A stretch of DNA of 64,000 bases from Peptoniphilus sp. (GCF_050943655.1 NZ_JBMNPQ010000001.1:15238-79237), one strand, 5' to 3'. Shown: positions 11,321 through 55,720, counted from the first letter of the stretch. A program made the numbers and translations. The notes: generated by a model not told the origin, from the letters alone.

Positions 11321-13210
11321 CAAACGAAAAAAGGTATGATGCGAGACACGCTCGAGGCCGCTCGGCCAAGCTAATGGTCTCTGCATCATATCCTTTTTTC
11401 TATTCACAAAGAATTTAAAAAGCTTTGGAAAAACCTTGCATTGCACAAGTCATAACCCCAACACTCGTCATCCCGAGCTTGTCGAGGGATCTGTACCTTA
11501 AGGAGAAACAGCCTAATCGTCTTGAATATAAAACCTTAAGGAGAACTGCAAAATAAAAATAAATAATAAAAAATTAAGCAAACGAAAAAAGGTATGATGC
11601 GAGACACGCTCAAGGCCGCTAGGCCAAGTACCGTTCCCCTGACATATCCTTTTTTCTATTCATAAAGAATTTAGAAAGCTTTGGAAAAATCTTGCATTGC
11701 ACAAGTCATAACCCCTACACTCGTCATTCTGAGCGAGCATGAAATGTGAGTCGCCGTGTACCCGGAAGGGTGAAGAATCTGCACCTTGTGGAGAAACAGC
11801 TTAATCGTCTTGAATAGAAAACCTCCACATCCGTCATCCCGAGCGAGCAGAGCGAGTCGAGGGATCTGCAAAGTGATCAAGCGAGACCTTATCGTCTTAA
11901 AGCAAAAGCACTACGGAGAAAAGCAAAATAAAAATCAAACAAACGAAAAAAGGTATGATGCGAGACACGCTCGAGGCCGCTCGGCCAAGCTAATGGTCTC
12001 TGCATCATATCCTTTTTTCTATTCATAAAGAATTTAGAAGGCTTTGGAAAAACCTTGCATTGCACAAGTCATAACACCTACACTCGTCATTCTGAGCGAG
12101 CATGAAATGTGAGTCGCCGTGTACCCGGAAGGGTGAAGAATCTGCACCTTGTGGAGAAACAGCTTAATCGTCTTGAATAGAAAACCTCCTCCCGTCATTC
12201 TTAGCGTCATCCCATCCACCGTCATCCCGAGCGAGCAGAGCGAGTCGAGGGATCTGCAAAGTGATCAAGCGAGACCTTATCGTCTTAAAGCAAAAGCACT
12301 ACGGAGAAAAGCAAAATAAAAATCAAACAAACGAAAAAAAGTATGATGGGAGACACGCTCGAGGTCGCTCGGCCAAGCTAATGGTCTCTGCATCATATCC
12401 TTTTTTCTATTCATAAAGAACTTAGAAAGCTTTGGAAAAACCTCGCATTGTACAAGTCATACCTCTACACTCGTCATTCTGAGCGAGCGTGAAATGCGAG
12501 TCGCCGTGTACCCGGAAGGGTGAAGAATCTGCACCTTGTGGAGAAACAACCTAATCGTCTTGAATAGAAAACCTCCACATCCGTCATCCCGAGCCAGCCC
12601 CCACACCGTCATCCAGAGCGAGCAAAGCGAGTCGAGGGATCTGTACCTTCTCAGCAAGAAGCATAAGCGTCTTAACAAGAAAACTTTAAGGAGTAAATAC
12701 TCCAAATCATAACTTAGTAAAGACAATAACACATCGCTTAACCACCCTACAGATCCTTCGACTCCGCCTCATGCTTCGCATTCAGCTCCGCTCAGGATGA
12801 CGTTGGAAGGGGATGCCTTCTCAGTATCATCTTGAAATTATCTGGACTATTTAAAATTTCTATTCATAAAGAATTTAGAAAGCATTAGGCACAATCGAGA
12901 CTTACACGATTCACAACCACAACACTTGTCATCCCGAGCGAGCAAAGCGAGTCGAGGGATCTGTAACTTCTCAGCAAGAAACCTAAGCGTCTTAACAAGA
13001 AAACTTTAAGGAGTAAATACTCCTAAGCATAACTTAGTAAAGACAACAACACATCGCTCGGCCACCCTACAGATCCTTCACCCTACCGGGTACACGGCGA
13101 TTCGCCTCATGCTTCGCATTCAGCTCCGCTCAGGATGACGTTGGAAGGGGATGCTTTCTCAGTATCGTCTTGAAATTATCTGCACTAATTAAATTTTCTA
13201 TTGATAAGAA
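11321..13210. repeat. Cluster 1 of CGTC-tagged palindromic repeats (REP/REPIN/BIME-like mosaic), including four copies of a second hairpin element
   Basis: CGTCATYYYGAG...GRRRATCTG units at about 11466, 11722, 11832, 12085, 12220, 12472, 12607 and 12927, inverted at 12750 and 13070. Tandem superunits of about 360-390 bp. Confidence 0.9.
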
Positions 13211-13317
13211 TTTAAAAATTTTTAGGCCAGTTATAATTAAACTCACAAAAACCACACTCTTAAGAAAACTTCAAAATAAAAAAGTTGTAAAAATTCGTAC
13301 AATATAATGACAATGTA

Positions 13318-13345
13318 TTGACAACGCACCAAAAAAGAATATAAT
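13318..13345 (+). promoter_or_regulatory. Consensus sigma-A promoter of the antitoxin gene
   Basis: TTGACA-16 nt-TATAAT. Confidence 0.75.
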
Positions 13346-13375
13346 AAGACTATACTAAATTTAAGGAGTAAAAAA

Positions 13376-13663
13376 ATGGCAAACACAAATACTAGTACTA
13401 GTACAAATTTAAACATTAGGGTAGATGCAGATGTTAAGGAACAATCTGAAGAAATTTTTGCAAAGTTGGGACTTAATATGACAACTGCAGTTAATATGTT
13501 TTTGAGAACTGTAATTAGAGAAAAGGGAATTCCTTTTGATTTATCTCTTGCTGAGCCAACTGAACAAGCTGTTAAGGCATTTGTTGCTGGCAAAAAAGTT
13601 GCAAGAAGTGAAATGAAAGGTCATTCAGACATAGAAGATTTAATAAGATCATTAAATGAGTAA
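13376..13663 (+). CDS. RelB/DinJ family antitoxin (no adjacent toxin)
   Basis: NLNIRVDADVKEQSEEIFAKLGLNMTTAVNMFLRTVIREKGIPFDL is the typical RHH RelB/DinJ signature. Confidence 0.9.
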   Translation: MANTNTSTSTNLNIRVDADVKEQSEEIFAKLGLNMTTAVNMFLRTVIREKGIPFDLSLAEPTEQAVKAFVAGKKVARSEMKGHSDIEDLIRSLNE

Positions 13664-13746
13664 TAAAAATTAATACCTTCCTTAAGATTTTTATCACTAA
13701 CAACCAATTATTTGGAAAAGAACTTATTTAATTAAAAAAGTTAACC

Positions 13747-13781
13747 AAAAAGGCCTTGAGCACAAACTCAAAGCCTTTTTT
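13747..13781. terminator. Bidirectional terminator between convergent genes
   Basis: AAAAAGGC-CTTGAG...CTCAAAGCC-TTTTT, with A and T tracts on both sides. Confidence 0.7.
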
Positions 13782-13798
13782 CTTTATTGCTTATTTTC

Positions 13799-14593
13799 TT
13801 ATTTTACAAATTCTTGTCCCATTTCGAATAATTCGTTGGCATCTACTTTTTCACTTGCCATTATTTCATATCTGATACCATCGATATCAAATATTATGTG
13901 ATTAGTTATGCATTCTTCTCTTTCTTGAGATGATCCTCCAATTCCAACGTTAAAGAATGGGTCGTTTTCTTTTCTTTCTCTCTCTTCTGGTGTCATGTCG
14001 TCTTCACTTGCTAAAAACAAATTGTGAAGTTGGAAATAATAGAACTTAACTCCATTGTATTCTCTTATTTCTTGATACTCATTTTCGACAAGTTCTTCAT
14101 GAACTTGTTGTAATTTGTCAGTATCTAGAGTAACAATGTCATTATTTTCATTCTTGTAATCTACGCTAACAGATTTTCTCTTGTTTTGCTCATTGTTATC
14201 TTCATCTACATCAGCAAGGTCAACAATTCTAATTCCATCAAATTTGTATTCTCCAAGTTTTTCTGGAATTATTGCATCAAATCCTGCCTTTTTTTCTGCT
14301 TTTGTTGTATCTTCATATGATGTGTAGTTGTAGAATGATGATGAAGATGAAATTATTCCAGTAGATTTTCCAATGGCAAACACTCCGCCACAAAGTACAA
14401 CTGCTGCTGCAAGTACTACACCAATTTTAGATTTTTTCATTTTAAACTCTCCTCTTCCTGAATTTCTATCTAGGTTCTTTATCTCGCTGTCGATTTTGTC
14501 TTTAAGAGAATCGGAAGGGAAAGTATTTTCGACACTTCTATTTAATTCTTCTCTAAGTTTATTATCAAAACTTTGATTCCAATCTTTTTTCAT
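13799..14593 (-). CDS. Putative anti-sigma factor (single TM, DUF4367-like extracytoplasmic domain)
   Basis: Overlaps the ECF sigma gene. One TM segment (IGVVLAAAVVLCGGVFAIG). Start at 14593 follows a GGGAGG RBS. Confidence 0.7.
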   Translation of the reverse strand: MKKDWNQSFDNKLREELNRSVENTFPSDSLKDKIDSEIKNLDRNSGRGEFKMKKSKIGVVLAAAVVLCGGVFAIGKSTGIISSSSSFYNYTSYEDTTKAEKKAGFDAIIPEKLGEYKFDGIRIVDLADVDEDNNEQNKRKSVSVDYKNENNDIVTLDTDKLQQVHEELVENEYQEIREYNGVKFYYFQLHNLFLASEDDMTPEERERKENDPFFNVGIGGSSQEREECITNHIIFDIDGIRYEIMASEKVDANELFEMGQEFVK

Positions 14594-15146
14594 AAATACC
14601 CTCCCTTTCAATTAAAAAAGATTCATTTGAATGTTCTAATTCTTTTTTTAAAACTTTTCTGGCCTTAAAGAGTCTTGACTTGACTGTTCCTTCAAAAACT
14701 CCAAGGGCCGATGCAATTTCTTTTATCGTAAGATCATTGTAGTAAAAAAGAACGATGACTTCGCGCTGCTTCTTATTTAGACTCATTAGAGCATCTTGTA
14801 TTTCACTCTTAACTACAAACTCGTCTTCAATTGTATAAGTCTCTTTATCTACTTTAAGCTGAATTTCTTCATCGGGAAGTTCCCTCTTTTTATTTTTATA
14901 TTTTTTGTAAGCAGAATTTTTTAAGATCGAAAACATCCAGGGCTTTAATTTGTCGGGATCTTTTAGAGACTTAATGTTTACATAAATGGAAACGAAGGCG
15001 TCTTGAGTGACATCCTCTGCATCGTAGGAATTTCCAAGTATTAGATAAGCTGTGCGAAATAACATTAAGTAATACTTATCATAAAGCTCATCAAAAGAAT
15101 TTTTGTCGCCGGCCTTTATTCCTTCAATTATTTTGCTGCCATCCAT
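14565..15146 (-). CDS. ECF-type RNA polymerase sigma factor
   Basis: DAEDVTQDAF (region 2) and IKEIASALGVFEGTVKSRLFKAR (region 4). Start at 15146 follows a GGAGGTGG RBS. Confidence 0.92.
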   Translation of the reverse strand: MDGSKIIEGIKAGDKNSFDELYDKYYLMLFRTAYLILGNSYDAEDVTQDAFVSIYVNIKSLKDPDKLKPWMFSILKNSAYKKYKNKKRELPDEEIQLKVDKETYTIEDEFVVKSEIQDALMSLNKKQREVIVLFYYNDLTIKEIASALGVFEGTVKSRLFKARKVLKKELEHSNESFLIEREGIYEKRLESKF

Positions 15147-15175
15147 TTTTACCACCTCCATCAGATGCATCTATA

Positions 15176-15206
15176 TATAAGAGCCTTTGGGGAAGAGAAA
15201 AGTTCA
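15176..15206 (-). promoter_or_regulatory. Candidate autoregulatory ECF promoter
   Basis: Minus strand TGAACTT-16 nt-CTCTTATA directly upstream of the ECF sigma gene. Confidence 0.45.
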
Positions 15207-15269
15207 TTTATTTTAAAAATTTTTAAAAATTATGTAAAAAATAAGGTAGCCAAAGCTACCTTTAAAATT

Positions 15270-15860
15270 TTATTTATTTTCTTCTAATACATGAGAAATT
15301 GTCGCATCCCATGTTTCAAAATTCATCGCACCGACGAATCCTCCAAGAACTACGCCGTCTTTGTCGACTATTAAAGTTGTTGGAATAACTGAAACTTTTG
15401 CCATATAGTCGTCCATTGTTGGGTTTGGCATAATATTTGTGTAAGTCACACCTTTTTTGTCCAAAATATTTAATGCTTCTTCAACATTTGTGTCGAGAGT
15501 TGCATTTGTATCAGACACGACGCCCAAAAAGTTCATGTCGTTTTTGTATTTTTGGTGTAGCTTTTCAAGATCTTCCATCTCTTCTATACATGGTGTGCAA
15601 AATGTTCCCCAAATGTTTACAAATGTGAGAGGCTTCTTGCCATAAAAATCTTTTGAGTCTACCATGTCGCCAGTTTTTATATCAAGAGTTTGGAAATTAA
15701 AATCGTTAAGTCCAACATCTTGCATCTTAGTTGCCTCTGCCATATTTTCTGCATTTCCTTTATTATTTGTATTTGCTTCGTTAGTTTCATTTTTTTTGCC
15801 ACAAGAAGCAAGTGTAAGTACTAAAGTAAATGCGAGCATTATTTTTAAAAACTTTTTCAT
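15270..15860 (-). CDS. TlpA-like thioredoxin-fold lipoprotein
   Basis: Lipobox LASC, NIWGTFCTPC CxxC motif and cis-Pro IPTT motif. Confidence 0.85.
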   Translation of the reverse strand: MKKFLKIMLAFTLVLTLASCGKKNETNEANTNNKGNAENMAEATKMQDVGLNDFNFQTLDIKTGDMVDSKDFYGKKPLTFVNIWGTFCTPCIEEMEDLEKLHQKYKNDMNFLGVVSDTNATLDTNVEEALNILDKKGVTYTNIMPNPTMDDYMAKVSVIPTTLIVDKDGVVLGGFVGAMNFETWDATISHVLEENK

Positions 15861-15939
15861 ATTATCACCTTCTATTTTAGTTTAATTATACAAAAAATGC
15901 CAAGTCTTGTCTAATTAAATGAAATATTATATAATTAAC

Positions 15940-15976
15940 GATACTTGTTCGAGAACTCCAAGTATAAAAAACTAAT
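15940..15976 (+). ncRNA. preQ1 class I riboswitch aptamer
   Basis: P1 ATACTTG/CAAGTAT, loop TTCGAGAACTC and tail AAAAAACTAA match preQ1-I architecture. Preceded by TTGTCT-17-TATAAT (15907-15935) and followed by an RBS-sequestering/terminator hairpin CTCCA/TGGAG plus T-tract. Confidence 0.85.
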
Positions 15977-16006
15977 CAGTTCTCCAAATTTAATGGAGGT
16001 TTTTTT

Positions 16007-16954
16007 ATGAAAAAAATTATTATTGACGCCGATCCTGGCATTGACGATTCTATTGCAATAATGCTTGCAGCAGGTCTTTCTCACTTTGACATTTTGGGTA
16101 TAACTATAGTATCTGGAAATGTATGTGTTGATAAGGGCGCTGTAAATGCTCTTAGACTTTCAAAATTTTTAAAGAAAGATTTCAATATTTACAAATCAAA
16201 TCCAAATCCCCTTGTAAAAGAATTAATAAACGCTGAAGACACTCACGGTGAAGACGGCCTTGGCGAAACTTATCTTCCTTATGAAGATAGAGAAGTTAAG
16301 GACGGTGCAGTTGACTTTATTATAGAAAATTTAAAAAAAGATGAAGTTACAATTTTTGCACTTGGACCGCTTACAAATATTGCAAGGGCAATGGAAAAAG
16401 ATATTGACGCCTTTAAATGTGCAAGAATTATTTCTATGGGAGGAAACTTCAAATCCTTTGGAAACATGAGTCCCGTTTCAGAATTTAATTACTATGTAGA
16501 CCCAGAAGCGGCAGATTATGTAATTCAAAATTCACCGAACCCAATTGAAATAATTCCGCTAGATGTCACGAGAAAATTTGTGCTGACTCCAAATATTATA
16601 GCTCTCATGAAAAGCATTAATAAAGACGTTGCAGACTTTTTAGAAAACATCACTAATTTTTATATGGATTTTCACCTAAAATATGAAAATATAATCGGTT
16701 CAGTGATAAACGACCCACTGGTAATTATGGCACACGAATTTCCAGAATACTTTGCAAAAGAAAAATATCACGCCGATGTAGTATGTGACGGGAAAGCTCG
16801 AGGCATGCTCATGGTAGATGAAAAGGACTTTTTAAAGAAAGAGAAAAACATTATTTTATATAGAGATATAAAAACTTTCCCAGTTTGGAAAAACTTTATA
16901 GAGATACTGACAGCTGGAGAAGTGGATGAAGAGATGTTGGAGAGAATATTATGA
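16007..16954 (+). CDS. queK: Nucleoside hydrolase, queuosine hydrolase QueK-like
   Basis: DADPGIDD IU-NH motif. DTHGEDG, DVTRKFVLTPNII and FYMDFH...VINDPL resemble my recollection of C. difficile QueK. The preQ1 riboswitch context supports the assignment. Confidence 0.75.
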   Translation: MKKIIIDADPGIDDSIAIMLAAGLSHFDILGITIVSGNVCVDKGAVNALRLSKFLKKDFNIYKSNPNPLVKELINAEDTHGEDGLGETYLPYEDREVKDGAVDFIIENLKKDEVTIFALGPLTNIARAMEKDIDAFKCARIISMGGNFKSFGNMSPVSEFNYYVDPEAADYVIQNSPNPIEIIPLDVTRKFVLTPNIIALMKSINKDVADFLENITNFYMDFHLKYENIIGSVINDPLVIMAHEFPEYFAKEKYHADVVCDGKARGMLMVDEKDFLKKEKNIILYRDIKTFPVWKNFIEILTAGEVDEEMLERIL

Positions 16955-17517
16955 AAATAAATTCTAGAAAACTTACAATACTTGCAATGTGTATTGCCAT
17001 AAACCTTGTAGGTGCGTGGATTGCACTTATTTTTAAACTGCCAATTTATCTAGACTCAATTGGAACAATAATGGCGGGATTTTCCTTTGGACCTGGCTTT
17101 GGCATAATTACGGGAGTAATAACGTCCTTTGTAAACATGTTGGGCGACCCAATAGCGATATATTTTCTTCCAACTCAGTTAATAGTTGGTTACATTGCAG
17201 GAGCAGTGACAGTGCTTAAAGAAAAAAATTCCTACAAAAAAATATATCAAGCATTTATAATGTCAATCCCAGCTGCAATATCATCAGCACTAATAGCGAC
17301 ATATGTATTTGGGACGGTTACAACAGCAGGATCAAGCTATATCGTGCAGTTCTTGAGGGCGACACTTAACATGAGCGACTTCCTTATAGTATTCATCGTT
17401 CAAATAGTTACAGATTATGCCGACAAATTTATTGGAATATTTTTGGTAGCAAAGATTTATAATATGGAAGCCTTTCAAAAAATACTTGAGAGGGATAGAT
17501 ATAGACTAAAAAAATAA
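16951..17517 (+). CDS. ECF transporter S component, probably for queuosine/queuine/preQ
   Basis: PIYLDSIGT...GP..G..TG motif in a 188-aa hydrophobic protein, translationally coupled to queK under the preQ1 riboswitch. Confidence 0.8.
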   Translation: MKINSRKLTILAMCIAINLVGAWIALIFKLPIYLDSIGTIMAGFSFGPGFGIITGVITSFVNMLGDPIAIYFLPTQLIVGYIAGAVTVLKEKNSYKKIYQAFIMSIPAAISSALIATYVFGTVTTAGSSYIVQFLRATLNMSDFLIVFIVQIVTDYADKFIGIFLVAKIYNMEAFQKILERDRYRLKK

Positions 17518-17529
17518 ATATTGGATTAA

Positions 17530-21690: not shown

Positions 21691-23414
21691 ATGAAACTAT
21701 ATTCTAAAAAATATTTAGCAATGTTACTTGCAGGAGTTATGGTTACATCAATGCCAGTTGCAGCTTTTGCAGGAGAAAACACAGATAATGATTTAAATAA
21801 TCCACAATCACAAGAAAAAACAGTTGAAAATAATAACAATAACACTTCAGAAGAAAACAAAGACAAAGAAGACAAAGATGAAAAAGAATTAGAAGATAAA
21901 AAAAAGACGCAAAAGATGATGTTGATGGTTTAAGATATCTATCAGATTCTAAAAGAAGACAAATAAAAAGAGATATTGACAAAGCAACAAGCAAATCTGA
22001 AGTTGAAAGAATATTAAGAGATGCAAGAGATGACAATTACGACAACAGAAAAGATGACGTATCTAAAAGAGATCTTGACATCACAAAATTAAAGTATGAC
22101 GGCAAAAGAGTAACAGGAAAGACTCTTAAGAAAGCAGAAATCTATGTATCTATAGACGGCGGAAGATTTAAATATGAAACAACTGCTGATAGAGATGGCG
22201 AATTTGATTTTAAATTAGATCTTAAAAAAGGTGAAAAAGCTGAAATTCGTGCAGAAAAAGATGACGTCGAAGGATATTCTGAAACAATTAGACACAATGA
22301 CTACGATGGCAAAGAAGTAGACGCAAGAAATCTAGAAATTTCTGGATATGAACTTTCTGGTACTATCAAAAATCATCCATGGGAAGATGTAAAAATTTAT
22401 CTAAATGGAAGATACCTTACAACAACAAGAACTGACAAAGACGGAGACTTCTCTGTAAGACTTAGCGAAAAACTTAAAAACTCTGACTTAGACGACTTAT
22501 CTTTCTATACAGAAAAGTCAACAACAGTTGAAAACAAAGACCTAAAAGTAACAAGAGCAATCGAAGGCGAAAAACTTGTAATGGGTACAACAAAAGGTCT
22601 TGAAGAAGTAAGAGTATTATCTGGAAGTAAAGAACTTGGTAAGAGTGATGCAGTTAGAACTGGAGACTTTACAGTATTCTTAGACAGAACTTTAGTATCA
22701 GGAGAAAAATTAACTCTTGAATCAAAAGACTCTGACGGAAAAGTTTCAAAAATTGATTTCGTTGTAACTAAAAAGGCCGAAGCACAAAAACAACTTGCAT
22801 ATATCGAAGGATATCCAGATGGAACATTTAAACCTTCTGATAATATGACAAGAGCAGAAGCAGCAAAGATGTTTGCAACATTAATAAATGGTGGAACAAA
22901 CTTTGGAACTTCAAAGACAACTAAGTTTACAGACGCAAGTAACGATTGGTACTCTGAAGCAATTAACTATGTTGTTGAAAAAGGATTCATTAACGGCTAC
23001 GAAGACGGAACATTTAAACCAAATGAAAAAATCACAAGAGCAGAATTTGCTAAGATGATTTCTGGATATATTAAAGACAGTAACACTACAAAAGCAAGCT
23101 TTGCAGATACAAAAGATCACTGGGCACAAGATGCAATCGACAAACTTTATGGAAACAAAAACATTAAAGGCTACCCAGATGGAACATTTAAACCAAATGC
23201 AAACATCACAAGAGCAGAAGCAGTAACAATCCTAAACTCTGTATTTAACAGATACACAACAGGCGCTTCACTTTCTGATGTGAACACATCTGGACTAAAA
23301 ACTTATAAAGACGTAGATTCATCACACTGGGCATACTACAGTATCCTAGATGCATCTAACACTCATAATAGTGAAAAACTAAATCCAAACTCAGACATTG
23401 ACATTTGGAAATAA
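21691..23414 (+). CDS. SLH-anchored surface protein (signal peptide, helical GA-like module, Ig-like domains, 3 SLH) interrupted by a -1 frameshift at the A8 tract 21898-21905
   Basis: The 80-aa N-terminal ORF has a signal peptide. The -1 frame from about 21906 reads open without stops into the 22581-23414 ORF containing GYPDGTFKP...TRAE SLH repeats. Adding one A gives about 574 aa. Confidence 0.85.
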
Positions 23415-33449: not shown

Positions 33450-33953
33450 ATGAAAAAAATACTTTTAGTAGTTGCCGTGATATTATTTTTCATCCCAATT
33501 GTCATGAATTTAAATTTGGGAAATAATGGACACGACGCAGGCGAAATGACAAAAGATTATTCAGAACAGATACAAAGAGACGCAAACCATCGTCTTTTGA
33601 CGGCTATAGTAGATAATGACGGATTAAAAATTCGCGTAAATGCGCTGATAAAAATTAAAGATGTAAAATCTAAAGAAGTAGAAGAAGTAAATGACTACTA
33701 TATTGAAGTAATCAATTCGCCCGTACCAATAGAATTTAAAAACCTAAGCCTTGACGTGTGGGCAGATGATCCGCAGTCAAAAGAAGTGTCCTATGCCTTT
33801 AGTGCAGATGCAAGGGCGATAGTAAAAAGATTTTCAAGTCCTCAAGTATCGAAGAGATTAGAAAGCATGGGATTTAGTGAGACAGATAAGACGAATGAAG
33901 GATATATTTACAGCAAGTATGTAGAAGGCGCTGGGAAAATGAATGTTAAGTAG
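33450..33953 (+). CDS. Hypothetical exported or membrane-anchored protein
   Basis: AAGGTG RBS and a hydrophobic N-terminus. No recognised domain. Confidence 0.7.
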   Translation: MKKILLVVAVILFFIPIVMNLNLGNNGHDAGEMTKDYSEQIQRDANHRLLTAIVDNDGLKIRVNALIKIKDVKSKEVEEVNDYYIEVINSPVPIEFKNLSLDVWADDPQSKEVSYAFSADARAIVKRFSSPQVSKRLESMGFSETDKTNEGYIYSKYVEGAGKMNVK

Positions 33954-33990
33954 GACTTTAATGGATTTGTAAGTTGTCGTGTTTGGGATC

Positions 33991-35300
33991 CCCACACTCG
34001 TCATCCTAAATGAACGAAGTGAGTTGAAGTGCTATGGTTTATCGACGTTATATGGAGAACACTTCCTCCAACGTCATCCTGAGCGAACGAAGTGAGTCGC
34101 CGTGTATCCAGAAGAGTCAAGGATCTGTAAAGGCACAGAAATGATGTGCCGTAATCTTGACGTAATCCCCACACTCGTCATCCTAAATGAACGAAGTGAG
34201 TTGAAGTGCTATGGTTTATCGACGTTATATGGAGAACACCATATCAGACGTCATCCTGAGCGAAGCTGAATGCGAAGCATGAGGCGCAGTCGAAGGATCT
34301 GTAGATGGTAGGGAGCGATGTGTCGTCGTCTTAACCAAGTTGTGTCTTGGAGTAATTCCCCTTAGAGTTATCTCATCAAAACGACAAGGCTGTTTCACCT
34401 AAAGGTGCAGATCCCTCGACTAACGCTCGGGATGACGGAGTGTAGAAGTTTTCACTCATATAGGTCGTTACTGTGCCAAAGTTTACAATTTAATAGCTTA
34501 AAAAAGTTGTAATCCCATCCAATGTCATCCTGAGCGAACGAAGTGAGTCGCCGTGTATCCAGAAGAGTCAAGAATCTGAAAAGACATAGAAATGATGTGC
34601 CGTCATTTTGACGTAATCCCCACACTCGTCATCCTGAGCGGAGCTAAATGCGAAGCATGAGGCGCAGTCGAAGGATCTGTAGATGGTAGGGAGCGATGTG
34701 TCGTCGTCTTAACCAAGTTGCGTCTTGGAGTAATTCCCCTTAGAGTTATCTCATCAAAACGCATAGATCGTTTCCCCAAAAGGTGCAGATCCCTCGACAA
34801 GCTCGGGATGACGGAGTGTGAAAGCTATGGCTCATATAGGTAGTTACTGTGCCAAAGTTTACAATTTAATAGCTTAAATAAAGTTGTAATCCTATCCAAC
34901 GTCATCCTGAGCGGAGCTGAATGCGAAGCATGAGGCGCAGTCGAAGGATCTGTAGGGTCGAGATGGCGATGTGTGGTCGTCTTATTGCGAAAGTGTTTTG
35001 AAGTTTTCTCCTTTACGCTTTTTCATTAAGACGATTAGTTCTCGCTCGATGGCTTTGCAGATCTTTCACCCTTCCGGGTACACAGCGGCCCAGAAAATTT
35101 TTGTGAATTTTCTTCCGCTCAAAATGACGCGGGGGAGGCTTTTTCTTTAAGACAATCAAGCTGTTTTTCCAAAAGGTGCAGATCCCTCGACTAACGCTCG
35201 GGATGACGGAGTGTGAAAGCTATGACCCTAAAAAGCTTCTACTGTGCCGAAGTTTACAATTTAATAGCTTAAAAAAGTTGTAACCCAATCCAACGTCATC
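33991..35300. repeat. Cluster 2 of CGTC-tagged repeats (tandem REPIN-like inverted pairs)
   Basis: Forward units at about 33999, 34072, 34176, 34249, 34523, 34627 and 34900, inverted at 34408, 34786, 35058 and 35179, truncated copy at 35294. Confidence 0.9.
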
Positions 35301-35437
35301 TTCAATATAAAAACCCCAAACTTCCCATTAATACTGGGAAGTTTTTAAATAAAATATCTGCCAAGGCTCTGTACTCACCTTGGCAGATATTTTTGGGATT
35401 ATTTAGTTAGAATTTTAAGAGAATATTATTTATAAAT

Positions 35438-36634
35438 TTATTTTGCGGCATCTATTAGTGCTTTAGAAAATTCTACAGTTGATTCTAAGAATTCTCCGTC
35501 TGGCATCCACATTGCTTTTACTTCAGGCTCAATTACTTTAAAGCCTGCCCCTTCAAGTTTTTCTCTAAGGACTTTATTGCCTTCTCCAGACCATCCGTAT
35601 GATCCAAAGACTCCCGCTACTTTTCCTTTAAATTTTAATTCTTGAAGGAAGTGAAGCCAGCCTGCAACGCTTGTTATTATTGATCTTCCAACTGTAGGGG
35701 AACCTACGGCAATTGCTTTTGATTTAAATACCTCTGTCATTATGTCGTTCTTGTCTACGTCGGCAATGTTTAAGACTTTGACTTTGGTGTCTGGACTGAG
35801 TTCTCTTAAGTCCGATGCAATTTTGTGAGCAATCTTTTTTGTTGCTCCCCACATTGAGTCGTAGATTATTGTTACTTGGTCCTCTTTATATTCATCTGCC
35901 CACTCTGCGTACTTTTCTACGATTTGCATAGCGTTATCGCGCCAAATTGTTCCGTGGCTTGTTGCGATTATATCTATTTGTATATTCATCTTTTGAATTT
36001 CTTCAAGCTTTCTTGTTACAAAAGATGAGAAAGGATTTAAAATATTTGCATAATATTTCATTGCCTCTTCCCAAAGCACACATTCGTCTGCCTTGTCGTT
36101 GAAGAGCTCGTTAAGGGCATAGTGTTGACCAAAGGCGTCGTTTGAGAATAGGATGTTGTCGCCTGTTAAATATGTTGCCATGGAATCTGGCCAGTGTAGC
36201 ATCATCATTTCTACAAAGACGAGCTGTTTTCCGCCTCCTATGTCCAAAGTGTCTCCAGTTTTTACAGTTCTAAAGTCCCATTCTGGGTGATGATACTGTC
36301 CAGTCAAAGATTTCTTCGCATTGTTTGTGCAATATATTGGCGTGTTTGGAATCTCCTTCATCAGTGCTGGAAGTGATCCACTGTGATCAGGCTCGCCGTG
36401 GTTTATTACGATGTAGTCAATTTCATTTAAGTCAATTTCTTTTTTTAAGTTTTCTACAAATTCATCTCTGTGAGGACCCCACACAGTGTCAATTAATACA
36501 GTTTTTTCTTCTTGAATTAAATAGGCATTTTGACTTGAGCCGTTGTTGATTGAATATTCTGATCCGTGGAACTCTGTAAGTTCCCAATCAATTTTGCCGA
36601 CCCAGTAAACATTATTTTTGACTAACTTTTTCAT
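35438..36634 (-). CDS. fprA: Flavodiiron protein (FprA/flavorubredoxin-type NO/O2 reductase)
   Basis: HGEPDHSGS, HWPDSM, FSNDAFGQH and a flavodoxin domain (SMWGAT, GSYGWSG). Confidence 0.9.
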   Translation of the reverse strand: MKKLVKNNVYWVGKIDWELTEFHGSEYSINNGSSQNAYLIQEEKTVLIDTVWGPHRDEFVENLKKEIDLNEIDYIVINHGEPDHSGSLPALMKEIPNTPIYCTNNAKKSLTGQYHHPEWDFRTVKTGDTLDIGGGKQLVFVEMMMLHWPDSMATYLTGDNILFSNDAFGQHYALNELFNDKADECVLWEEAMKYYANILNPFSSFVTRKLEEIQKMNIQIDIIATSHGTIWRDNAMQIVEKYAEWADEYKEDQVTIIYDSMWGATKKIAHKIASDLRELSPDTKVKVLNIADVDKNDIMTEVFKSKAIAVGSPTVGRSIITSVAGWLHFLQELKFKGKVAGVFGSYGWSGEGNKVLREKLEGAGFKVIEPEVKAMWMPDGEFLESTVEFSKALIDAAK

Positions 36635-48928: not shown

Positions 48929-49722
48929 AATTAAGTGAACTAGCAAAGATGAGCCCAAAAGAAGTAAGAGAACTTATTAGAAAAGGCGAAGTTAATGCGC
49001 CAACTTCTGGCATGAGTGAAGGATACTTGCAAGCAAACCTTGCAATACTTCCAAAAAAATATGCCTATGACTTCTTGCTATTTGCACAAAGAAATCCAAA
49101 ACCATGTCCAATACTTGAAGTACTAGATGAAGGATCATCTCTTACAAAAATAATGGCAGATGGCGCGGATATAAAGACAGACGTGCCAAAATATAGAATC
49201 TATAAAAATGGAGAATATGAAAAAGAAGTAACTGATCTTAAAGACGTATGGCAAGATGACTTCGTAACATTTGTAATAGGATGCTCATTCTCCTTTGAAA
49301 AAGCAATGCTTGAAGCAGATGTACCTGTAAGACACATTGAAGACGAACACAATGTTCCAATGTATATTACAAATATAGAATGTGAAAGCGCAGGAGTATT
49401 CCACGGAAACACTGTAGTATCAATGAGACCTATACCTTATAAAGATGTAGTAAAAGCAACTACAGTAACAGCAAGATTCCCTGCAACACATGGTGCACCA
49501 ATTCACATTGGAGACCCATCTGTAATAGGAATTAAAGACATTGACAAACCTGACTTTGGCGAAAGAAGTGAAATAAGAGAGGGCGAAGTGCCAGTATTCT
49601 GGGCTTGTGGAGTAACACCTCAAGCAGTGGCTATGGCATCTAAACCTGACATTATGATAACTCACGCACCAGGACATATGCTTATCTTAGATAAAAAAGA
49701 CGCATACGTTTCAGTATTTTAA
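48925..49722 (+). CDS. DUF1445/YcsI putative hydro-lyase (D-glutamate cyclase-like)
   Basis: QANLAILP, RNPKPCP, GCSFSFE, FWACGVTPQ and ITHAPGHM motifs. Confidence 0.88.
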   Translation: MKLSELAKMSPKEVRELIRKGEVNAPTSGMSEGYLQANLAILPKKYAYDFLLFAQRNPKPCPILEVLDEGSSLTKIMADGADIKTDVPKYRIYKNGEYEKEVTDLKDVWQDDFVTFVIGCSFSFEKAMLEADVPVRHIEDEHNVPMYITNIECESAGVFHGNTVVSMRPIPYKDVVKATTVTARFPATHGAPIHIGDPSVIGIKDIDKPDFGERSEIREGEVPVFWACGVTPQAVAMASKPDIMITHAPGHMLILDKKDAYVSVF

Positions 49723-49826
49723 TTAAATATAATTAGAAAGTAGAAAGATTTTGACTGAGCTTAATTGGTCAAAATCTTTTTTTGCTTACATGAATCCATG
49801 TAGAGTTGAAAAAATAAAAAATAGAA

Positions 49827-51130
49827 CAAACGAAAAAAGGTATGATGCGAGACACGTCAGGGGCCGCTCGGCCAAGTGACGTTCCCCTGACATATCCTTT
49901 TTTCTATTTTTAAAGAATTTAAAAAACCTCTCGACCGTCATCCCGAGCTTGCCGAGGGATCTGCACCTTCTGGAGAAATAACCTCATCGTCTTAAAGAAA
50001 AAACCTCCCTACCGTCATCCCGAGCGAACGTGAAACGCGAGTCGAGGGATCTGCAAAGTTATCAAGCGAGAACTAATCGTCTTGACTAAAAAACCTTATG
50101 GAGATCCTTAAAAGAATAAAAAATAATTAAACAAACGAAAAAAGGTATGATGCGAGACACGCTCGAGGCCGCTCGGCCAAGCTAATGGTCTCTGCATCAT
50201 ATCCTTTTTTCTATTTATGAAGAATTTGGAAAACTTCCCGGTCGTCATCACGAGCGTTCTCTGAGGGATCTGCACCTTACGTAAAAAACCTAATTGTCTT
50301 AACGAGAAGTCTCTCACTCGTCATCTTGAGCGAGAGCTTTGCTCGAGTCGAAAGATCTGCACCTTCTGGAGAAACAACCTCATCGTCTTAAAGAAAAAAT
50401 CTCCCACCCGTCATCCCGAGTGAGCGTGAAACGCGAGCCGAGGGATCTGCACCTTACTGAGAAATAACCTAATCATCTTAACGAGAAGTCTCTCACTCGT
50501 CATCTTGAGCGTAAAAAAATTCGTAAGAATTTTTTGAAGTCGAAAGATCTGCAACTTGTGAAGAAACAGCCCCATCGTCTTAAAGAAAAAACCTCCCACC
50601 CGTCATCCCGAGCTTGCCGAGGGATCTGCAAAGTCATCGAGCGAGAATTAATCGTATTAAAGAGACAATTTAAAGGAGAGACTCCAAAACACTTTTCTGT
50701 CAAGACGATAACACATCGTTCCCTAGTCTCCACAGATCCTTTATAGACCTAACAGAAATCTTTGATTTCGTTGTAGGTCTTATGCTGTAAGTGCGACTCC
50801 ACTTCAGGCTATGCCTTCCGTTCCGCTCAGAATGACGTTGAATGGGATAGTTTTCTATATAAAGCCGATAAATCATAGGCGCAGTAGCGCTCTATTTAAG
50901 TCTCAACCTTTACACACCAGTCATCCCAAGCGAGCAAAGCGAGTCGAAAGATCTGCACCTTCTGGAGAAACAACCTCATCGTCTTAAAGAAACAACCTCC
51001 CGACCGTCATCCCGAGCTTGCCGAGGGATCTGCAAAGTAATCTAACGAGAACTAATCGTCTTAATGTAAAAGCGTAAAGGAGAAGACCTCAAAAACCCTT
51101 TCTCTTCAAAACGCCAACACATCACTTCCG
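49827..51130. repeat. Cluster 3 of CGTC-tagged repeats (mainly a head-to-tail array) with two copies of the second hairpin element
   Basis: Forward units at 49936, 50013, 50243, 50319, 50409, 50498, 50601, 50919 and 51005, inverted unit at 50733-50837. Confidence 0.9.
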
Positions 51131-51378
51131 CAACCCTATAGCTCCTTAAATTTTAATAGCTTCGTTTTACAATCTCTCTTTCCAATCCTTAGTCCCAACA
51201 ACATCAAGGTAATATTTTCTCAATTAAAAATCCAAATTCCAACAAAATTGTACTTTTAAAGTATAAAATTTCAAAAAATTAATTAAATTTTACAAAAATT
51301 ATATTAAATCAAAAAAACCTCAATCTTAAAACAGTGTTAATTAAAGCCTTTGTTTTTATTAAGTGTTGTTAAAGGAAT

Positions 51379-51395
51379 TGTTACAAATTTGTTAA
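51379..51395 (+). promoter_or_regulatory. WalR/OmpR-type direct repeat upstream of SLH gene 2
   Basis: TGTTAC-AAATT-TGTTAA, with an extra TGTTAA at 51367. Confidence 0.5.
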
Positions 51396-51493
51396 ATTAT
51401 CAAAGAATTGTTTAAAATTGTATTTTTGCGTTTTGTATGGGGTATAATCTAACCAAGGGAAAATGTTTTATATAATTAAAAAGGAGGTTAATC

Positions 51494-53866
51494 ATGAAAC
51501 ATAAAAGACTCATAAGCTTATTGCTTGCAATGATTATGTTATTGGCAGTGCCAATTGGCGTATTTGCAGAAGACGGAACAGGTTCAGAAGCACCTGCAGC
51601 TGACACTACGTTTAAAGTAACGGTTAATGGTGGAACAACTGAAAATAACCCAGCAGCAGAAAATGATACAGTTACAATAAAAGCTAATGCTGCTGAACCA
51701 GGTAAAAAATTTGACAAATGTACTACTCAGTCTGACGAAGTTGTTTTTGCAAATGAAAATGACGAAGAAACAACGTTTAAAATGCCTGCTCATGAAGTGA
51801 CTGTTACAGCAACTTATAAAGATAAAGATTATTCAATTGGCATGACTAAGGGTACGGCAACACCAACTAAAGCAGATGAAGGAGACCAAGTAACCATAGT
51901 TGCTAATACCCCAGAAGCGGGTGAAGAATTTGTTAAGTGGGAGGCAACAGGTATTACAATTGATAATCTAACTGAATCTACATTAACTTTTATAATGCCT
52001 GCTAACAATGTAACTTTTACAGCTACTTATGAGAAAATAACTTATAATGTAAATGTTGAAGGTGAAACAGCAAATCCAAATAAAGGAAAAATGGGAGAAG
52101 AAATAACATTAAAAGCTACAGTTCCAGAAGATAAAGATTTTGTTAAATGGAATGTAACTAGTGATAATGTGGAATTAAGAGATTCCAACAAAGAAGAAAC
52201 AACATTCACAATGCCAGCTGGTGACGTAAATATTACAGCTGTATTTAAAAATAAATCAGAACCAGCACAAAAATATGATATAACAGTAAATAGTGATGGA
52301 AATGGTACAGCAAAAGCAAATCCTGCAACAGCTGCAAAGGATGAAACTGTTACATTAACAGCTGAACCAAATTCTGGTTATAAATTTAAAGAGTGGAAAG
52401 TTATTACACCTACAAGTTTATCAATTAAGAATGATAAGTTCACAATGCCAGGAGAAGAAGTAGAAGTTAAAGCTATATTTGAAAAGAAATCTACTCCATC
52501 TACAAAAGAACGTTTATATATCAGAGATGAATATGTAAGTGGAAATTATGTATATGGTTATGTTGAAGATGAAGACGACTACAGAGTAAAAAATGCAACT
52601 GTAACTGCATACGACAGATATGACGACAAAGAAATTGACAACGATAAAACTGATTCTAATGGTAAGTTTAAGATTTGGATAGGCGACAGATATTATAGGG
52701 ATTACGACTATTATTATGATGGATATTACTTCGACAGAAGCGATGTAAAATATGATAGCAATGACGATCCATATATCAGCACTTCTAATGGTAGAAAATG
52801 GTTACCATCTGACTGGAGTTCAAAATATTATAGAAGCGGTAGAAGATATTATGATTATGATATTTATCTAATTGCAGAAAAAACTGGATATCATGACTCT
52901 AGTAAATATTATCTAGATGACAAATATTATGACGATTATTGGCACGACGGAAAATATTACAATGGTAAATATTCTCTAACTCCATCAATCGAATCAGCTT
53001 ATGCTGGTGAAAAGAATGTTAAGGGTAGTGCAGGAGACTATGCAGACATTACAGTTTATGACGATGACGGATATAAACTTGGTACTGCAACTGCAGATAG
53101 AGATGGAGACTTCACTGTATATCTAGACAGAGCTTTAAAATATGGTGAAAAGATTAAAGTTGAAGCTAAAGACGGAAGTCGTTATTCTAGCTCTACAACT
53201 TACACTGTAAAATATAAAGACAGTACAGATGTTACAAGCTTTGTAAGACCTGCTTACATCAAGGGTTATCCAGATGGAACATTTAAACCAGGTGCAACTA
53301 TTACAAGAGCAGAAGCTGTTAAGATGTTTGTTGGACTAATCAATAACGGCAAGGACGTTGCTCACAGTTCTAATACAGGATTTAGCGACGCAGATAACAT
53401 GTGGTATTCAAGTGTTATTAAATACGCAGTGGATAAAGGTTATATCAAAGGATATGGCGACGGAACATTTAAACCAAATGAAGAAATTACTAGAGCAGAA
53501 TTTGCTGCAATGATTTCTAAATTTGTTGACAAGGGATATCCAGGAAGCACAAACTTTAAGGACATCAAGGGCCACTGGGCATCTGATGCAATAAGTGCTC
53601 TTTATGGCAACAAGAACATTAAAGGTTATCCAGACGGAACATTTAAACCAAATTCTAAACTAACAAGAGCAGAAGCTGTTACTATTTTAAACTCTGTATT
53701 TGGCAGAGACACTAGAGTAAATTCTCTATACAACATCAACACTTCTGGACTAAAGACATTTAGTGATGTTTCTAGTGGATACTGGGCATATTATGAAATT
53801 CTAGATGCTTCAAACACTCACTCAACTTCTAAAGTTGGCACAGATGGATTTGAAGTTTGGAAATAA
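51494..53866 (+). CDS. SLH-anchored surface protein with four divergent InlB-B-repeat-like domains, a Tyr/Asp-rich segment, an Ig-like domain and 3 SLH
   Basis: Signal peptide, repeated VT(I/L)xA...F..W...TFxMPAxxVTxTA units and GYPDGTFKP...TRAE repeats. Confidence 0.9.
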   Translation: MKHKRLISLLLAMIMLLAVPIGVFAEDGTGSEAPAADTTFKVTVNGGTTENNPAAENDTVTIKANAAEPGKKFDKCTTQSDEVVFANENDEETTFKMPAHEVTVTATYKDKDYSIGMTKGTATPTKADEGDQVTIVANTPEAGEEFVKWEATGITIDNLTESTLTFIMPANNVTFTATYEKITYNVNVEGETANPNKGKMGEEITLKATVPEDKDFVKWNVTSDNVELRDSNKEETTFTMPAGDVNITAVFKNKSEPAQKYDITVNSDGNGTAKANPATAAKDETVTLTAEPNSGYKFKEWKVITPTSLSIKNDKFTMPGEEVEVKAIFEKKSTPSTKERLYIRDEYVSGNYVYGYVEDEDDYRVKNATVTAYDRYDDKEIDNDKTDSNGKFKIWIGDRYYRDYDYYYDGYYFDRSDVKYDSNDDPYISTSNGRKWLPSDWSSKYYRSGRRYYDYDIYLIAEKTGYHDSSKYYLDDKYYDDYWHDGKYYNGKYSLTPSIESAYAGEKNVKGSAGDYADITVYDDDGYKLGTATADRDGDFTVYLDRALKYGEKIKVEAKDGSRYSSSTTYTVKYKDSTDVTSFVRPAYIKGYPDGTFKPGATITRAEAVKMFVGLINNGKDVAHSSNTGFSDADNMWYSSVIKYAVDKGYIKGYGDGTFKPNEEITRAEFAAMISKFVDKGYPGSTNFKDIKGHWASDAISALYGNKNIKGYPDGTFKPNSKLTRAEAVTILNSVFGRDTRVNSLYNINTSGLKTFSDVSSGYWAYYEILDASNTHSTSKVGTDGFEVWK

Positions 53867-53997
53867 TTAAAAAAAATAACAAGGGGTCTTGATGGCCCTT
53901 TGTTTTTTTATTGCAATAAAGGGTATATAAATTAAAAGAAATATTTTAAAATTATTTTAGGATAATTATGGAATATAGAAGGAAAGGAGATTTATTT

Positions 53998-54432
53998 ATG
54001 AAAATATTAGTTCCTATTGATGGCTCTAAGAGTTCAGCTAAATGTATTGAAGTTGCAAGAGGTATGGGAGAAAAGTTAGAGGCAGATTTGATTATACTTA
54101 CTGTCACTCCTGAAACATCAGTCTTTGAACAATATCCTGCAAACTTTGCATACACTTTGGAAGTTGAAAAGGCAAATGTGGAAAGAGCTGAGTCAATTTT
54201 AAAGGATGCTGAAAATGAATTGTCAGATTATCCATATGGAGTGGAGACATATTACACAACAGGAAGTCCAAGTGAACAAATTTGTACTTTCTCTGAAGAC
54301 AAAGACGTAGACCTTATTGTTATGGGTAACCGTGGACTAGGAGCATTTTCTAGAACTCTCCTTGGATCTGTTTCAAACAAGGTATTAAACCACTCAAGAA
54401 AATCTGTATTAGTTGTTAAGGCTGATATTTAA
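53998..54432 (+). CDS. Universal stress protein
   Basis: KILVPIDGS and DLIVMGNRGLG...LLGSVSNKVL motifs. Start at 53998 follows an AGGAGA RBS. Confidence 0.92.
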   Translation: MKILVPIDGSKSSAKCIEVARGMGEKLEADLIILTVTPETSVFEQYPANFAYTLEVEKANVERAESILKDAENELSDYPYGVETYYTTGSPSEQICTFSEDKDVDLIVMGNRGLGAFSRTLLGSVSNKVLNHSRKSVLVVKADI

Positions 54433-54499
54433 AATTATTAAAATTAATAGATTGGGATGAAGAGGCTTCGGCCTCTTTTTTCTTTGCTTTGGGTAGCGT

Positions 54500-55720
54500 A
54501 TACTTCGTTATTCTGAGCGAGAGCTTCGCTCGAGTCGCTGTGTACCCTGAAGGGTGAAAGAGTCTGCACTTTTAGGGGAAACAACATAAGCGTCTTAATG
54601 AAAAAGCCTGCCCCTCATCATCTTGAGCGAAAGAAAATTCACAAGAATTTTCTGAAGCCGAAAGATCTGCAAAGCGGTCTAGCGAGAATTATTTGTCTGA
54701 AAAAAATGACGTATAGGAGAATTACTCCAATGCACAACTTGGTCAAAACGACAACACATCGCTTTCTCTACCCTACAGATCCTTCGACTCACTTCGTTCG
54801 CTCAGGATGACGCCCTCACACTCCGTCATTCTGAGCGAGAGCTTTGCTCGAGTCGAAGAATCTGCACCTTTTAGAAGAGACAGCCTAAGCGTCTTAACAA
54901 GAAAACCTCACTGAGAAAACTCCAAAACTCGTTCGTATTAAGACGACCGCACATCGCCACATCTACTCTACAGATACTTCGACGCGGAAAATAAATTTTC
55001 CTTGCTCAGAATGACGTATGAAGAGGTGTCTTCCATATAACGTGTACAAATCATAGGCACAGTAGTGACCTATTTGAGCCTCGACCTCTACACTCCGTCA
55101 TCTTGAGCGAAAGAAAATTCACAAGAATTTTCTGAAGTCGAAAGATCTGCACCTTTAAGGGAAACAGTCTAAGCGTCTTAATAAAAAAGCGTGAGGGAGG
55201 ATTACTCCAAGACATTTTTGCAATAAGACGAAAACACATCACAAGAATACTCTACAGATCCTTCGACGCGGAAAATAAATTTTCCTTGCTCAGGATGACG
55301 TATGAAGAGGTGTCTTCCATATAACGTGTACAAATCATAGGCACAGTAGCGAACTATTTGAGCCTCAACTTCTACACTCCGTCATCTTGAGCGGAAAAAA
55401 TCCGTAAGGATTTTTGGAGTCGAAAGATCTGCACTTTTAGGGAAAACAACATAAGCGTCTTAATAAAAAAGCGTGAGGGGGGATTACTCTAATACACTTT
55501 TAAAATAAGACGAAAACACATCGCAAGAATACTCTACAGATCCTTTATAGACCTAACAGAAATCTTTGATTTCGTTGTAGGTCTTATGCTGTAAGTGCGA
55601 CTGCGCCTCATGCTTCGCATTCGTCTCCACTCAGGATGACGACCCCACACTCGTCATCTTGATTAGATAACTTTAAGGGGCATTACTCCAAAATTCTTTT
55701 TCAATAAGACAAACACATCA
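54500..55720. repeat. Cluster 4 of CGTC-tagged repeats (four REPIN-like inverted pairs)
   Basis: Forward units at 54506, 54616, 54824, 55096 and 55380, inverted at 54776, 54971, 55255 and 55537, truncated copy at 55652. Confidence 0.9.

Follow-up and report, generated by a model that had tools for sequence, protein, structure and literature searches.

Repetitive extragenic palindromes (REPs) that carry an unpaired CGTC tag have been described in five phyla, Bacillota not among them; their A-T/T-A stem start is near-invariant, the other stem residues alternate between complementary forms, heterodimers occur, and no dedicated or flanking transposase was found (PMC3733652). Members of this superfamily include Neisseria dRS3, Rickettsia RPE-4 and RPE-6, and the CGTC-3 repeats of Kosmotoga and Mesotoga (PMC3733652). 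Chenal et al. (2025) extended dRS3 to the 28-nt NTS, CGTCATTCCCGCGMAVGCGGGAATCYRG, which is bound by SsnA, a 94-aa single-domain GIY-YIG protein that cuts a few nt upstream and acts only on the tagged strand as single-stranded DNA (ssDNA), not on RNA or double-stranded DNA (PMC11893778). Binding depends critically on the C immediately 3' of the palindrome, and cutting is affected by the three upstream nucleotides; binding at the stem foot with a nick a few nt 5' of CGTC was shown for Neisseria, Wolbachia and other homologues, and Ssn homologues across phyla are flanked by related hairpins named SRMs (PMC11893778). Here we analyzed a 64,000-nt stretch of a Peptoniphilus sp. genome (hereafter the window), in which ~36 repeat units lie in four intergenic clusters. 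We consider it likely that these units are lineage-specific, highly amplified CGTC-tagged REPs of the NTS/SRM kind, that is, recognition sites of small Ssn GIY-YIG nucleases.

The window corresponds to C1:15238-79237 of the genome designated G000, an assembly of 1.67 Mb in 121 contigs that is 92% complete and has ~35% G+C. It contains 36 copies of the left-arm motif GTCATCCCGAGC with at most two mismatches, against 1.2 expected, and 281 units were parsed genome-wide, of which 278 fall into 51 clusters and 3 are singletons. The units have in common with CGTC-tagged REPs the CGTC/TGTC tag, the A-T/T-A start, alternative stems and inverted heterodimers, as well as intergenic positions mostly 3' of genes, a patchy occurrence across phyla and the lack of a flanking transposase gene. 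With the NTS/SRM-Ssn system they share the CGTC-AT…AT-C layout (CGTC-AT…AT-C-Y-R in the NTS), hundreds of copies clustered around genes, a repeat-gene-repeat arrangement around a 94-95-aa GIY-YIG gene in relatives, and the co-occurrence of gene and repeat across phyla. A preliminary description, made from the window sequence alone, had called the elements REPs, and the comparison supports that identity. Integron attC sites provide a working analogy, since these recombination sites are likewise folded single strands in which some bases are extrahelical and the terminal structure varies; in contrast to attC sites, the units lack RYYYAAC/GTTRRRY R boxes, are not separated by gene cassettes, and are spaced by 40-120 nt. 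Sequence inspection led us to reject an attC identity and a hammerhead-like core. Literature matched by raw sequence words or by peptides of spurious open reading frames (ORFs) contained nothing relevant.

Covarying hairpins around a non-canonical core

The units take the form CGTC-AT-YYY-GAGC[…]GTCGA-RRR-AT-C-TG(C/T), followed by a conserved tail of ~48 nt. All parsed units are framed by GTCAT…ATC, the stem beginning with A-T and then T-A, and an unpaired tetranucleotide stands directly 5' of the palindrome, as in the CGTC-REP superfamily, where TGTC and CCTC also serve as tags (CGTC in 253 units, TGTC in 15, AGTC in 7 and GGTC in 6). The right-arm motif RRR-ATCT with a complementary triplet was found within 200 nt of 247 of the 295 GTCAT-YYY-GAG left arms. 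A C directly follows …AT in at least 272 of the 281 units, and the 3' flank of the palindrome reads CTGC or CTGT in 265; the HGTC tag and the invariant C 3' of the palindrome that characterize Ssn sites are therefore both present. The ~48-nt linkers between palindromes are conserved tails and part of the unit, with YGTYTT at +27/28 in 241 of the 281.

Inside the 5-bp stem, the core consists of a tandem G·A motif (5'-C-GA-G-3' on both arms, giving G·A and A·G) and two G-C pairs with an extra T on the 3' arm, and in most interior classes a second purine-purine loop precedes the interior hairpin. These non-complementary core positions are the best-conserved part of the unit, and the constant 5'-C-GA-G-3' context suggests a sheared G·A geometry. 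The complementary strand would carry T·C/C·T in place of G·A, which makes the fold strand-specific: of 271 units, 248 have their more stable fold on the tagged strand when RNA parameters are used, and 232 when DNA parameters are used. The interiors belong to about a dozen recurring classes of 11-37 nt, or 11-90 nt when nested and branched hairpins are counted, and many of the loops are GNRA-like. Two optional arms, CCGTGTACCCGGAAGGGTG and a ~50-nt AGACCT…AGGTCT hairpin, enter at one point, directly after GTCG, and either is found with several different interiors. The AGACCT…AGGTCT arm shows a compensatory change between species, namely GAAATC/GATTTC in G000 and GGAATC/GATTCC in a related genome, G010.

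The conserved pairing is most evident in the outer stem. Each of its three variable positions is Watson-Crick paired in ~94% of the units, with both C-G and T-A in use, and seven fully complementary stem types occur in G000. Perfect stems were found in 246 of the 281 units, compared with 75.8±6.7 (maximum 102) after global shuffling of the right arms and 188±4.2 (maximum 205) after shuffling inside interior classes. For the seven interior classes that occur with at least two stem types, the number was 115 of 132 against 56.6±4.2 in shuffled sets, and the class GCGT-GAA-ACGC alone is combined with six different complementary stems. Some local blocks in the first cluster of the window are tandem duplicates. 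Among the 281 units, 279 are unique when 25-nt flanks are included, so that whole-block duplication, which the preliminary description had named among the outcomes that would together overturn its proposal, does not explain the pattern.

The interior AGAAAATTC-N4-GAATTTTCT allowed the comparison to be extended to two related species. It is enclosed by the stem ATCTT/AAGAT or ATTCT/AGAAT in G000, by ATCCT/AGGAT in G010 and by ATTCC/GGAAT in a second relative, G003. In an alignment of 22 sequences from the three species, 98.3% of the cells are paired and five pairs have changed on both sides; none of 500 shuffles was as good, and slid partners gave 26-65% pairing. The covarying pair C12-G41 ↔ T12-A41 straddles the bulged T and thus supports the inner part of the fold model.

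The covariation shows that the repeats are real hairpins whose pairing is conserved. The compensatory outer stems that the preliminary description had pointed out are thereby confirmed, and its view that single-stranded pairing is the conserved property is supported. Every position and interior module that it had named is present in the sequence, several combinations of modules occur, and unit length does extend from the minimal unit to the 103-105-nt units on the minus strand (see the table).

Genomic arrangement, distribution and a candidate nuclease partner

Neighbouring pairs of units are tail-to-tail in 87 cases, head-to-tail in 75 and head-to-head in 68, with spacings mainly of 100-119 nt (75 of the 87 pairs), 40-59 nt, and 60-79 or 0-19 nt, respectively. 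Only 1 of 146 inverted neighbour pairs has a common stem, against 26% expected (binomial P 5e-18), and 3 of the 146 have a common interior class; direct neighbours have a common stem in 15 of 46 pairs. The commonest inverted pairings nearly all join an ATCCT unit (CTGT flank in the units of the window) to a unit with another stem (CTGC flank). Two REP types thus alternate in inverted orientation, as in bacterial interspersed mosaic elements (BIMEs). Five of the 281 units lie inside crude gene calls. A peel-and-paste insertion 3' of a CGTC target, by units that themselves terminate in CGTC, found no support, because the next unit begins ~22 nt past the CGTC of the tail and not directly after it.

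The family is patchy within the genus and scattered far outside it. A scan of 22 Peptoniphilus genomes with a looser pattern gave 248 matches in G000, 102 in G003, 38 in G010, 1 in G008 and 0 in each of the remaining 18 genomes, and the reversed pattern used as a control gave 0. By purL identity, G000, G003 and G010 are mutually closest (84% and 77%, compared with 74-76% for most others). The spacer between purL and relB measures ~1.98 kb with the first cluster in G000 and ~128 bp, free of repeats, in the nearest relative, G010. The patchy counts together with this repeat-free spacer indicate a mobile repeat family and not a conserved host RNA. Of 401 genomes sampled evenly across the phylum, 35 (~9%) had a match to the loose pattern; the next-highest count after G000 was 74, which the count of G000 exceeds more than threefold. 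A strict pattern identified at least 116 loci among the matches listed, in Pedobacter and other Bacteroidota, Gemmatimonadota (Gemmatimonadaceae), Acidobacteriota, Planctomycetota, Armatimonadota, Chloroflexota, Bacillota (Clostridia), Patescibacteria (Parcubacteria), Verrucomicrobiota and Proteobacteria. These loci are frequently inverted doublets and frequently have long nested interiors. The commonest form in Bacillota is the 26-nt GTCAT-YYY-GA-GCGAAGC-GA-RRR-ATCT, in which a d(GCGAAGC) mini-hairpin core lies between tandem G·A pairs, and this form may be the ancestor of the elaborated Peptoniphilus units.

Within the genus, G003 and G010 alone have a gene for a 94-95-aa GIY-YIG protein (E 7e-59 and 2e-44); in both, a repeat cluster surrounds the gene and places 13 units in the ±1.5 kb around it. 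The Peptoniphilus proteins carry Y6, Y17 and E64, the residues mutated in SsnA of Neisseria meningitidis. Homologues with 48-56% identity, often multicopy, were found in 10 of 12 repeat-bearing genomes of other phyla. CGTCAT-type hairpins lie within 1.5 kb at 28 of 32 of the loci, on both sides at 21 of 32, so that the repeat-ssn-repeat layout is found in relatives and in other phyla; it does not occur in the window. In genomes with several Ssn-like paralogues (Pedobacter, Parcubacteria, Armatimonadota, a betaproteobacterium and others), the hairpin variants often differ from one paralogue to another, examples being TGTCATTCCCGACTCGATCGGGAATCCA, CGTCATACTGAACTTGTTTCAGTATCTA and CGTCATTGCGA…GCAATCTT, which suggests that pairs of nuclease and site co-diversify inside one genome. 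By comparison, among 126 ORFs beside hairpins at the 116 loci of many phyla, no Pfam family occurred more than 3 times, and all were housekeeping.

All genomes of the genus besides G003 and G010 gave only a ~30%-identical match of ~100 aa. In G000, tblastn matched a UPF0213-type paralogue on C63 and, spuriously, a primase-like ORF with which C78 begins. The UPF0213-type GIY-YIG protein (~100 aa; C63:7790-8062) is distinct from the Ssn-like protein and has no association with the repeats; a ~30%-identical counterpart of similar size occurs in 20 of the 21 remaining Peptoniphilus genomes. NCBIfam and PDB sequence searches separated the Peptoniphilus Ssn-like protein from UPF0213 and placed it no more finely. 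In G003 and G010, the ssn gene is just upstream of the orthologue of G000 C2:433-3264, and the syntenic site in G000 is therefore expected where C2 begins or before that point; the initial 430 bp of C2 are rich in A+T and free of units. Contig ends lie within 500 bp of a unit in 9 of 242 cases, and 5.2% of the genome lies that near; assembly breaks caused by the repeats are thus no general explanation for the missing gene. An ssn gene of G000 could be within the ~8% of the genome that the assembly lacks, or may have been lost, perhaps recently. The presence of a ComEC homologue makes imported ssDNA a possible substrate, as in Neisseria.

Weighing the explanations

In the explanation that we favor, recognition by an Ssn nuclease, the tagged strand would become single-stranded during replication or repair, or in incoming transforming or conjugative DNA, and each unit would then fold into the 5-bp stem (A-T, T-A and three Y-R pairs), the tandem sheared G·A, the two G-C pairs with the bulged T, usually the second purine-purine loop, and a self-folding interior. 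A cognate Ssn would bind the stem foot including the invariant 3' C and nick a few nt 5' of the CGTC tag. If only the stem foot, tag, 3' C and flanks are read by the nuclease, the interior could vary, provided that it is self-folding and permits closure of the short outer stem, which would explain the nested, covarying, interchangeable modules. Copies would multiply most probably by nick-stimulated recombination or template switching between copies. The mosaics are BIME-like, with the ATCCT/CTGT type alternating with a CCC-, CTT-, TCT- or TCC-stem/CTGC type, and the rarity of like inverted neighbours may arise because unlike neighbours limit long perfect palindromes and inter-unit pairing, thereby helping to keep stem diversity.

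Several observations weigh against this assignment. The published CGTC families 1-4 have an 8-9-bp stem, a 4-5-nt loop and a CCA-like tail, and the G000 units show none of these; they have instead the 5-bp stem, tandem G·A and 2 bp with a bulged T, interiors of 11-90 nt, a CTGC/CTGT flank and the ~48-nt tail. The published families are mainly head-to-head, with negligible head-to-tail pairs and rare clusters, unlike the 87/75/68 split and almost complete clustering in G000. The SRM string HGTCWYN(0-2)YYVSBRHN(0-5)WNVSBRGN(0-2)RNCYNB matched 0 of the 281 units and nothing elsewhere in G000; the units are missed because of their G·A core and long interiors, the SRM loop being limited to N(0-5). 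SsnA of N. meningitidis is inactive once the sequence of the palindrome is changed with the hairpin retained (PMC11893778), and the seven stem types of G000 would thus need a tolerant enzyme or several specificities. Permissive tblastn found no Ssn-like gene in the 92%-complete G000 assembly; 19% of the genomes with >200 SRMs have no ssn gene (PMC11893778). The activity of the Peptoniphilus protein is a prediction, and its membership in cd10448 is putative. Short single units folded as ssDNA by nearest-neighbour methods have z values of -0.06 to -1.2 relative to shuffled sequences, that is, no excess stability. Stability in excess of shuffled sequences was obtained only for the 105-nt unit (z -4.1) and for the tail-to-tail heterodimer at 12603..12806, which as one hairpin has a minimum free energy of -41.8 kcal/mol as ssDNA (z -8.3). 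The case for pairing therefore rests on covariation and not on energy.

It is also conceivable, though we think it improbable, that the diversity of stems and interiors is itself functional, as an "anti-pairing code" in which every unit can fold on itself alone and inverted neighbours are kept from building long palindromes, as a graded and programmable set of ssDNA nicking sites read by different nucleases or cut with different efficiencies, or in a role of the hairpins that is independent of a nuclease.

A role mainly as RNA, for example as 3'-untranslated-region stabilizers, terminator or processing signals, or small structured RNAs, appears to us still more doubtful. The clusters do lie 3' of genes, and 16 of the 39 with both flanks defined are between convergent genes (background 9%; 2 are between divergent genes). 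Where the flanking genes are in tandem, units more often share the direction of the genes (78:45), T·G intermediates exceed C·A in the stem (24:14), the GNRA-like loops and the preference of RNA parameters for the tagged strand point the same way, and Di Nocera, De Gregorio and Rocco (2013) argued that many REPs may be transcribed (PMC3733652). However, the orientation bias is weak (154:121 relative to the G-rich strand), and half of the units of each cluster are on the opposite strand. Rfam gave no match at gathering thresholds over the whole window, and an E-value search over the third cluster returned one chance-level miRNA match (E<1). The 18 of 22 congeneric genomes that have no trace of the family argue against a conserved regulatory RNA, and the associated protein family did not bind RNA in the tested case (PMC11893778). 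The preliminary description had proposed a structured RNA or ssDNA cargo. The ssDNA part of this proposal holds up and the RNA part is less favored: given that the closest system, SsnA, acts on ssDNA only, and given the ratios of 78:45 for orientation and 24:14 for G·T to C·A, we judge ssDNA to be the better fit. The cargo part was not borne out.

Complementarity could in principle be maintained by mutation itself, through template switching within a strand or gene conversion from one arm to the other, with no selection on the fold. Arm-to-arm correction is known for palindromes generally, and single-mismatch stem intermediates are rare here (~6% per position). Such a process would, however, erase the invariant C-GA-G/C-GA-G motifs and the bulged T, which persist in nearly every unit and from phylum to phylum, and it would not yield the avoidance of identical inverted neighbours. 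We therefore regard it as very unlikely.

Mobilization as REPINs or BIMEs by a RAYT (an IS200/IS605-type Y1 transposase), as for the GTAG REPs of Enterobacteria and Pseudomonas, is less probable again. Like the BIMEs of Escherichia coli and REPIN-RAYT systems, the G000 clusters alternate two unit types in orientation at stereotyped spacers and contain doublets foldable as long hairpins, and a tetranucleotide tag stands 5' of the hairpin in both. One Y1_Tnp gene is present in the relative G010. In contrast, G000 and G003 have no Y1_Tnp (PF01797), no unit lies within ±1.5 kb of any of the 12 Y1_Tnp loci retrieved for repeat-bearing genomes, the tag is CGTC and not GTAG, and no transposase flanked by CGTC repeats is known from the published families (PMC3733652). 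The RAYT explanation is thus already largely refuted. Finally, the idea that information sits inside the repeat, as the preliminary description suggested, in an "inside-out CRISPR" or cargo system with acquired interiors, can point to the varied interiors, the constant flanks and the near-constant linkers of the third cluster but has almost nothing else to recommend it, since the interiors are short, low-complexity, self-complementary fillers of the dozen recurring classes common to several species, the linkers are unit tails, and the 126 neighbouring ORFs showed no association with any particular gene.

The clusters of the window and the wider family

The features of the window are collected in the table.

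Table. Repeat clusters, modules, individual units and other features of the window (positions counted from its first nucleotide)
Feature	Position	Strand	Remarks
Repeat-bearing intergenic regions	11.3-13.2 kb, 34.0-35.4 kb, 49.7-51.5 kb, 54.4-56.0 kb		
Cluster 1	11466..13140	none	~10 units, tails and second repeat (A6…T6 hairpin), from purL stop (11306) to relB/dinJ antitoxin gene (13376)
Cluster 2	34072..35208	none	~9 units, alternating orientation; convergent intergenic region 33953-35438
Cluster 3	49936..51030	none	~10 units, mainly head-to-tail; conserved tails 46-49 nt
Cluster 4	54505..55641	none	~8 units, alternating orientation; Usp-like gene on one side, acyl-CoA dehydrogenase gene on the other
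GCGT-GAA-ACGC module	50013, 50409		
GAGC-TTT-GCTC module	50319, 54824		
ATGC-GAA-GCAT module	12752, 34249, 34627, 34900, 55539		
ACCC-GGAA-GGGT side arm	11722, 12085, 12472, 13072, 35060		
AAAATTC-GTAA-GAATTTT module	50498		
AAAATCC-GTAA-GGATTTT module	55380		Compensatory variant of the preceding
GAAAATTC-ACAA-GAATTTTC module	55096		
GGAAAAT-TT-ATTTTCC module	54973, 55257		
AGACCT…AGGTCT arm	50735, 55539		
Minimal unit	11466..11491 (/93)	+	CGTC-ATCCC-GAGCTTGTCGA-GGGAT-C
48-nt conserved tail	11490..11537	+	TCTG-N25-CGTCTTRA…; 16 copies in the window
Unit, stem ATTCT/AGAAT	11722..11779	+	Interior GCAT-GAA-ATGT; ACCC-GGAA-GGGT side arm after GTCG (three-way junction)
Unit, stem ATCCC/GGGAT	11832..11866	+	Interior GC-AGA-GC flanked by two tandem G·A motifs
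Tail-to-tail heterodimer	12603..12806	none	Plus-strand unit 12607 and minus-strand unit 12752; alternative single long hairpin
Unit, stem ATCCT/AGGAT	13072..13140	-	Interior ATGC-GAA-GCAT; ACCC side arm
Unit, stem ATCCT/AGGAT	34249..34299	+	Interior ATGC-GAA-GCAT
28-nt unit, stem ATCCC/GGGAT	34410..34437	-	Interior GAGCGTTAGTCGA
Unit, stem ATTTT/AAGAT	35060..35129	-	One T·G pair; GAAAATTC-type interior; ACCC side arm
Unit, stem ATCCC/GGGAT	50013..50051	+	Interior CGT-GAA-ACG
Unit, stem ATCTT/AAGAT	50319..50357	+	Interior GAGC-TTT-GCTC
Unit, stem ATCTT/AAGAT	50498..50549	+	Interior AAAAAATTC-GTAA-GAATTTTTT
103-nt unit, stem ATTCT/AGGAT	50735..50837	-	One T·G pair; interior AGGC-ATA-GCCT; AGACCT…AGGTCT arm
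Unit, stem ATCCT/AGGAT	54778..54812	-	Interior AC-GAA-GT
Unit, stem ATTCT/AGAAT	54824..54862	+	Interior GAGC-TTT-GCTC; head-to-head heterodimer with unit 54778
Unit, stem ATTCT/AGTAT	54973..55016	-	One mismatch; interior GGAAAAT-TT-ATTTTCC
Unit, stem ATCTT/AAGAT	55096..55147	+	Interior AGAAAATTC-ACAA-GAATTTTCT, with other complementary stems in two related species
Unit, stem ATCTT/AAGAT	55380..55429	+	Interior AAAAATCC-GTAA-GGATTTTT (compensatory variant)
103-nt unit, stem ATCCT/AGGAT	55539..55641	-	Interior ATGC-GAA-GCAT; AGACCT arm
Second repeat, ~119 nt	11307-11425, 11565-11683, 11926-12044, 12314-12432, 49813-49931, 50118-50236		Within REP arrays
RelB/DinJ-family antitoxin gene	13318-13663		95 aa (TIGR02384, E 8e-23); perfect TTGACA-16-TATAAT promoter match
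Terminator-like hairpin	13747-13780		After the antitoxin gene
SLH-domain repeats	22793-23249, 53248-53530		…GYPDGTFKP…ITRAEA…
Surface-protein genes	22581-23414, 51494-53866		

The second repeat folds into a long hairpin (A6GG…CCT6, stem ~21 bp) that resembles a bidirectional terminator, and a conserved stretch of ~60 nt runs from its 3' side up to the next CGTCAT. No toxin ORF is apparent beside the RelB/DinJ antitoxin gene, and its adjacency to purL is kept in G010. The SLH-domain repeats of the surface-protein genes register as direct-repeat families, and the window contains no tRNA or tmRNA gene.

The G000 system is a structurally distinct, very dense and elaborately branched variant of a family already known from several phyla. 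The 2013 catalogue of CGTC-tagged REPs contained no partner protein, and the Ssn partner was reported only in 2025, mostly for Gram-negative bacteria and with a short-loop search motif. The branch described here is wholly missed by that motif yet widespread, occurring in ~9% of the sampled Bacillota genomes by the loose pattern and in many other phyla by the strict pattern; the genome-wide SRM counts in the literature are therefore underestimates. The near-absolute bar on like-with-like inverted neighbours gives a quantitative handle on REP diversification. If the units persist in G000 with no Ssn gene at all, the hairpins would have a nuclease-independent role. The conserved non-canonical core, with its tandem G·A and bulged T, tolerates large branched inserts, and the units thus represent natural substrates for defining Ssn recognition, in a branch that offers compact pairs of ssDNA nuclease and site from Gram-positive anaerobes.

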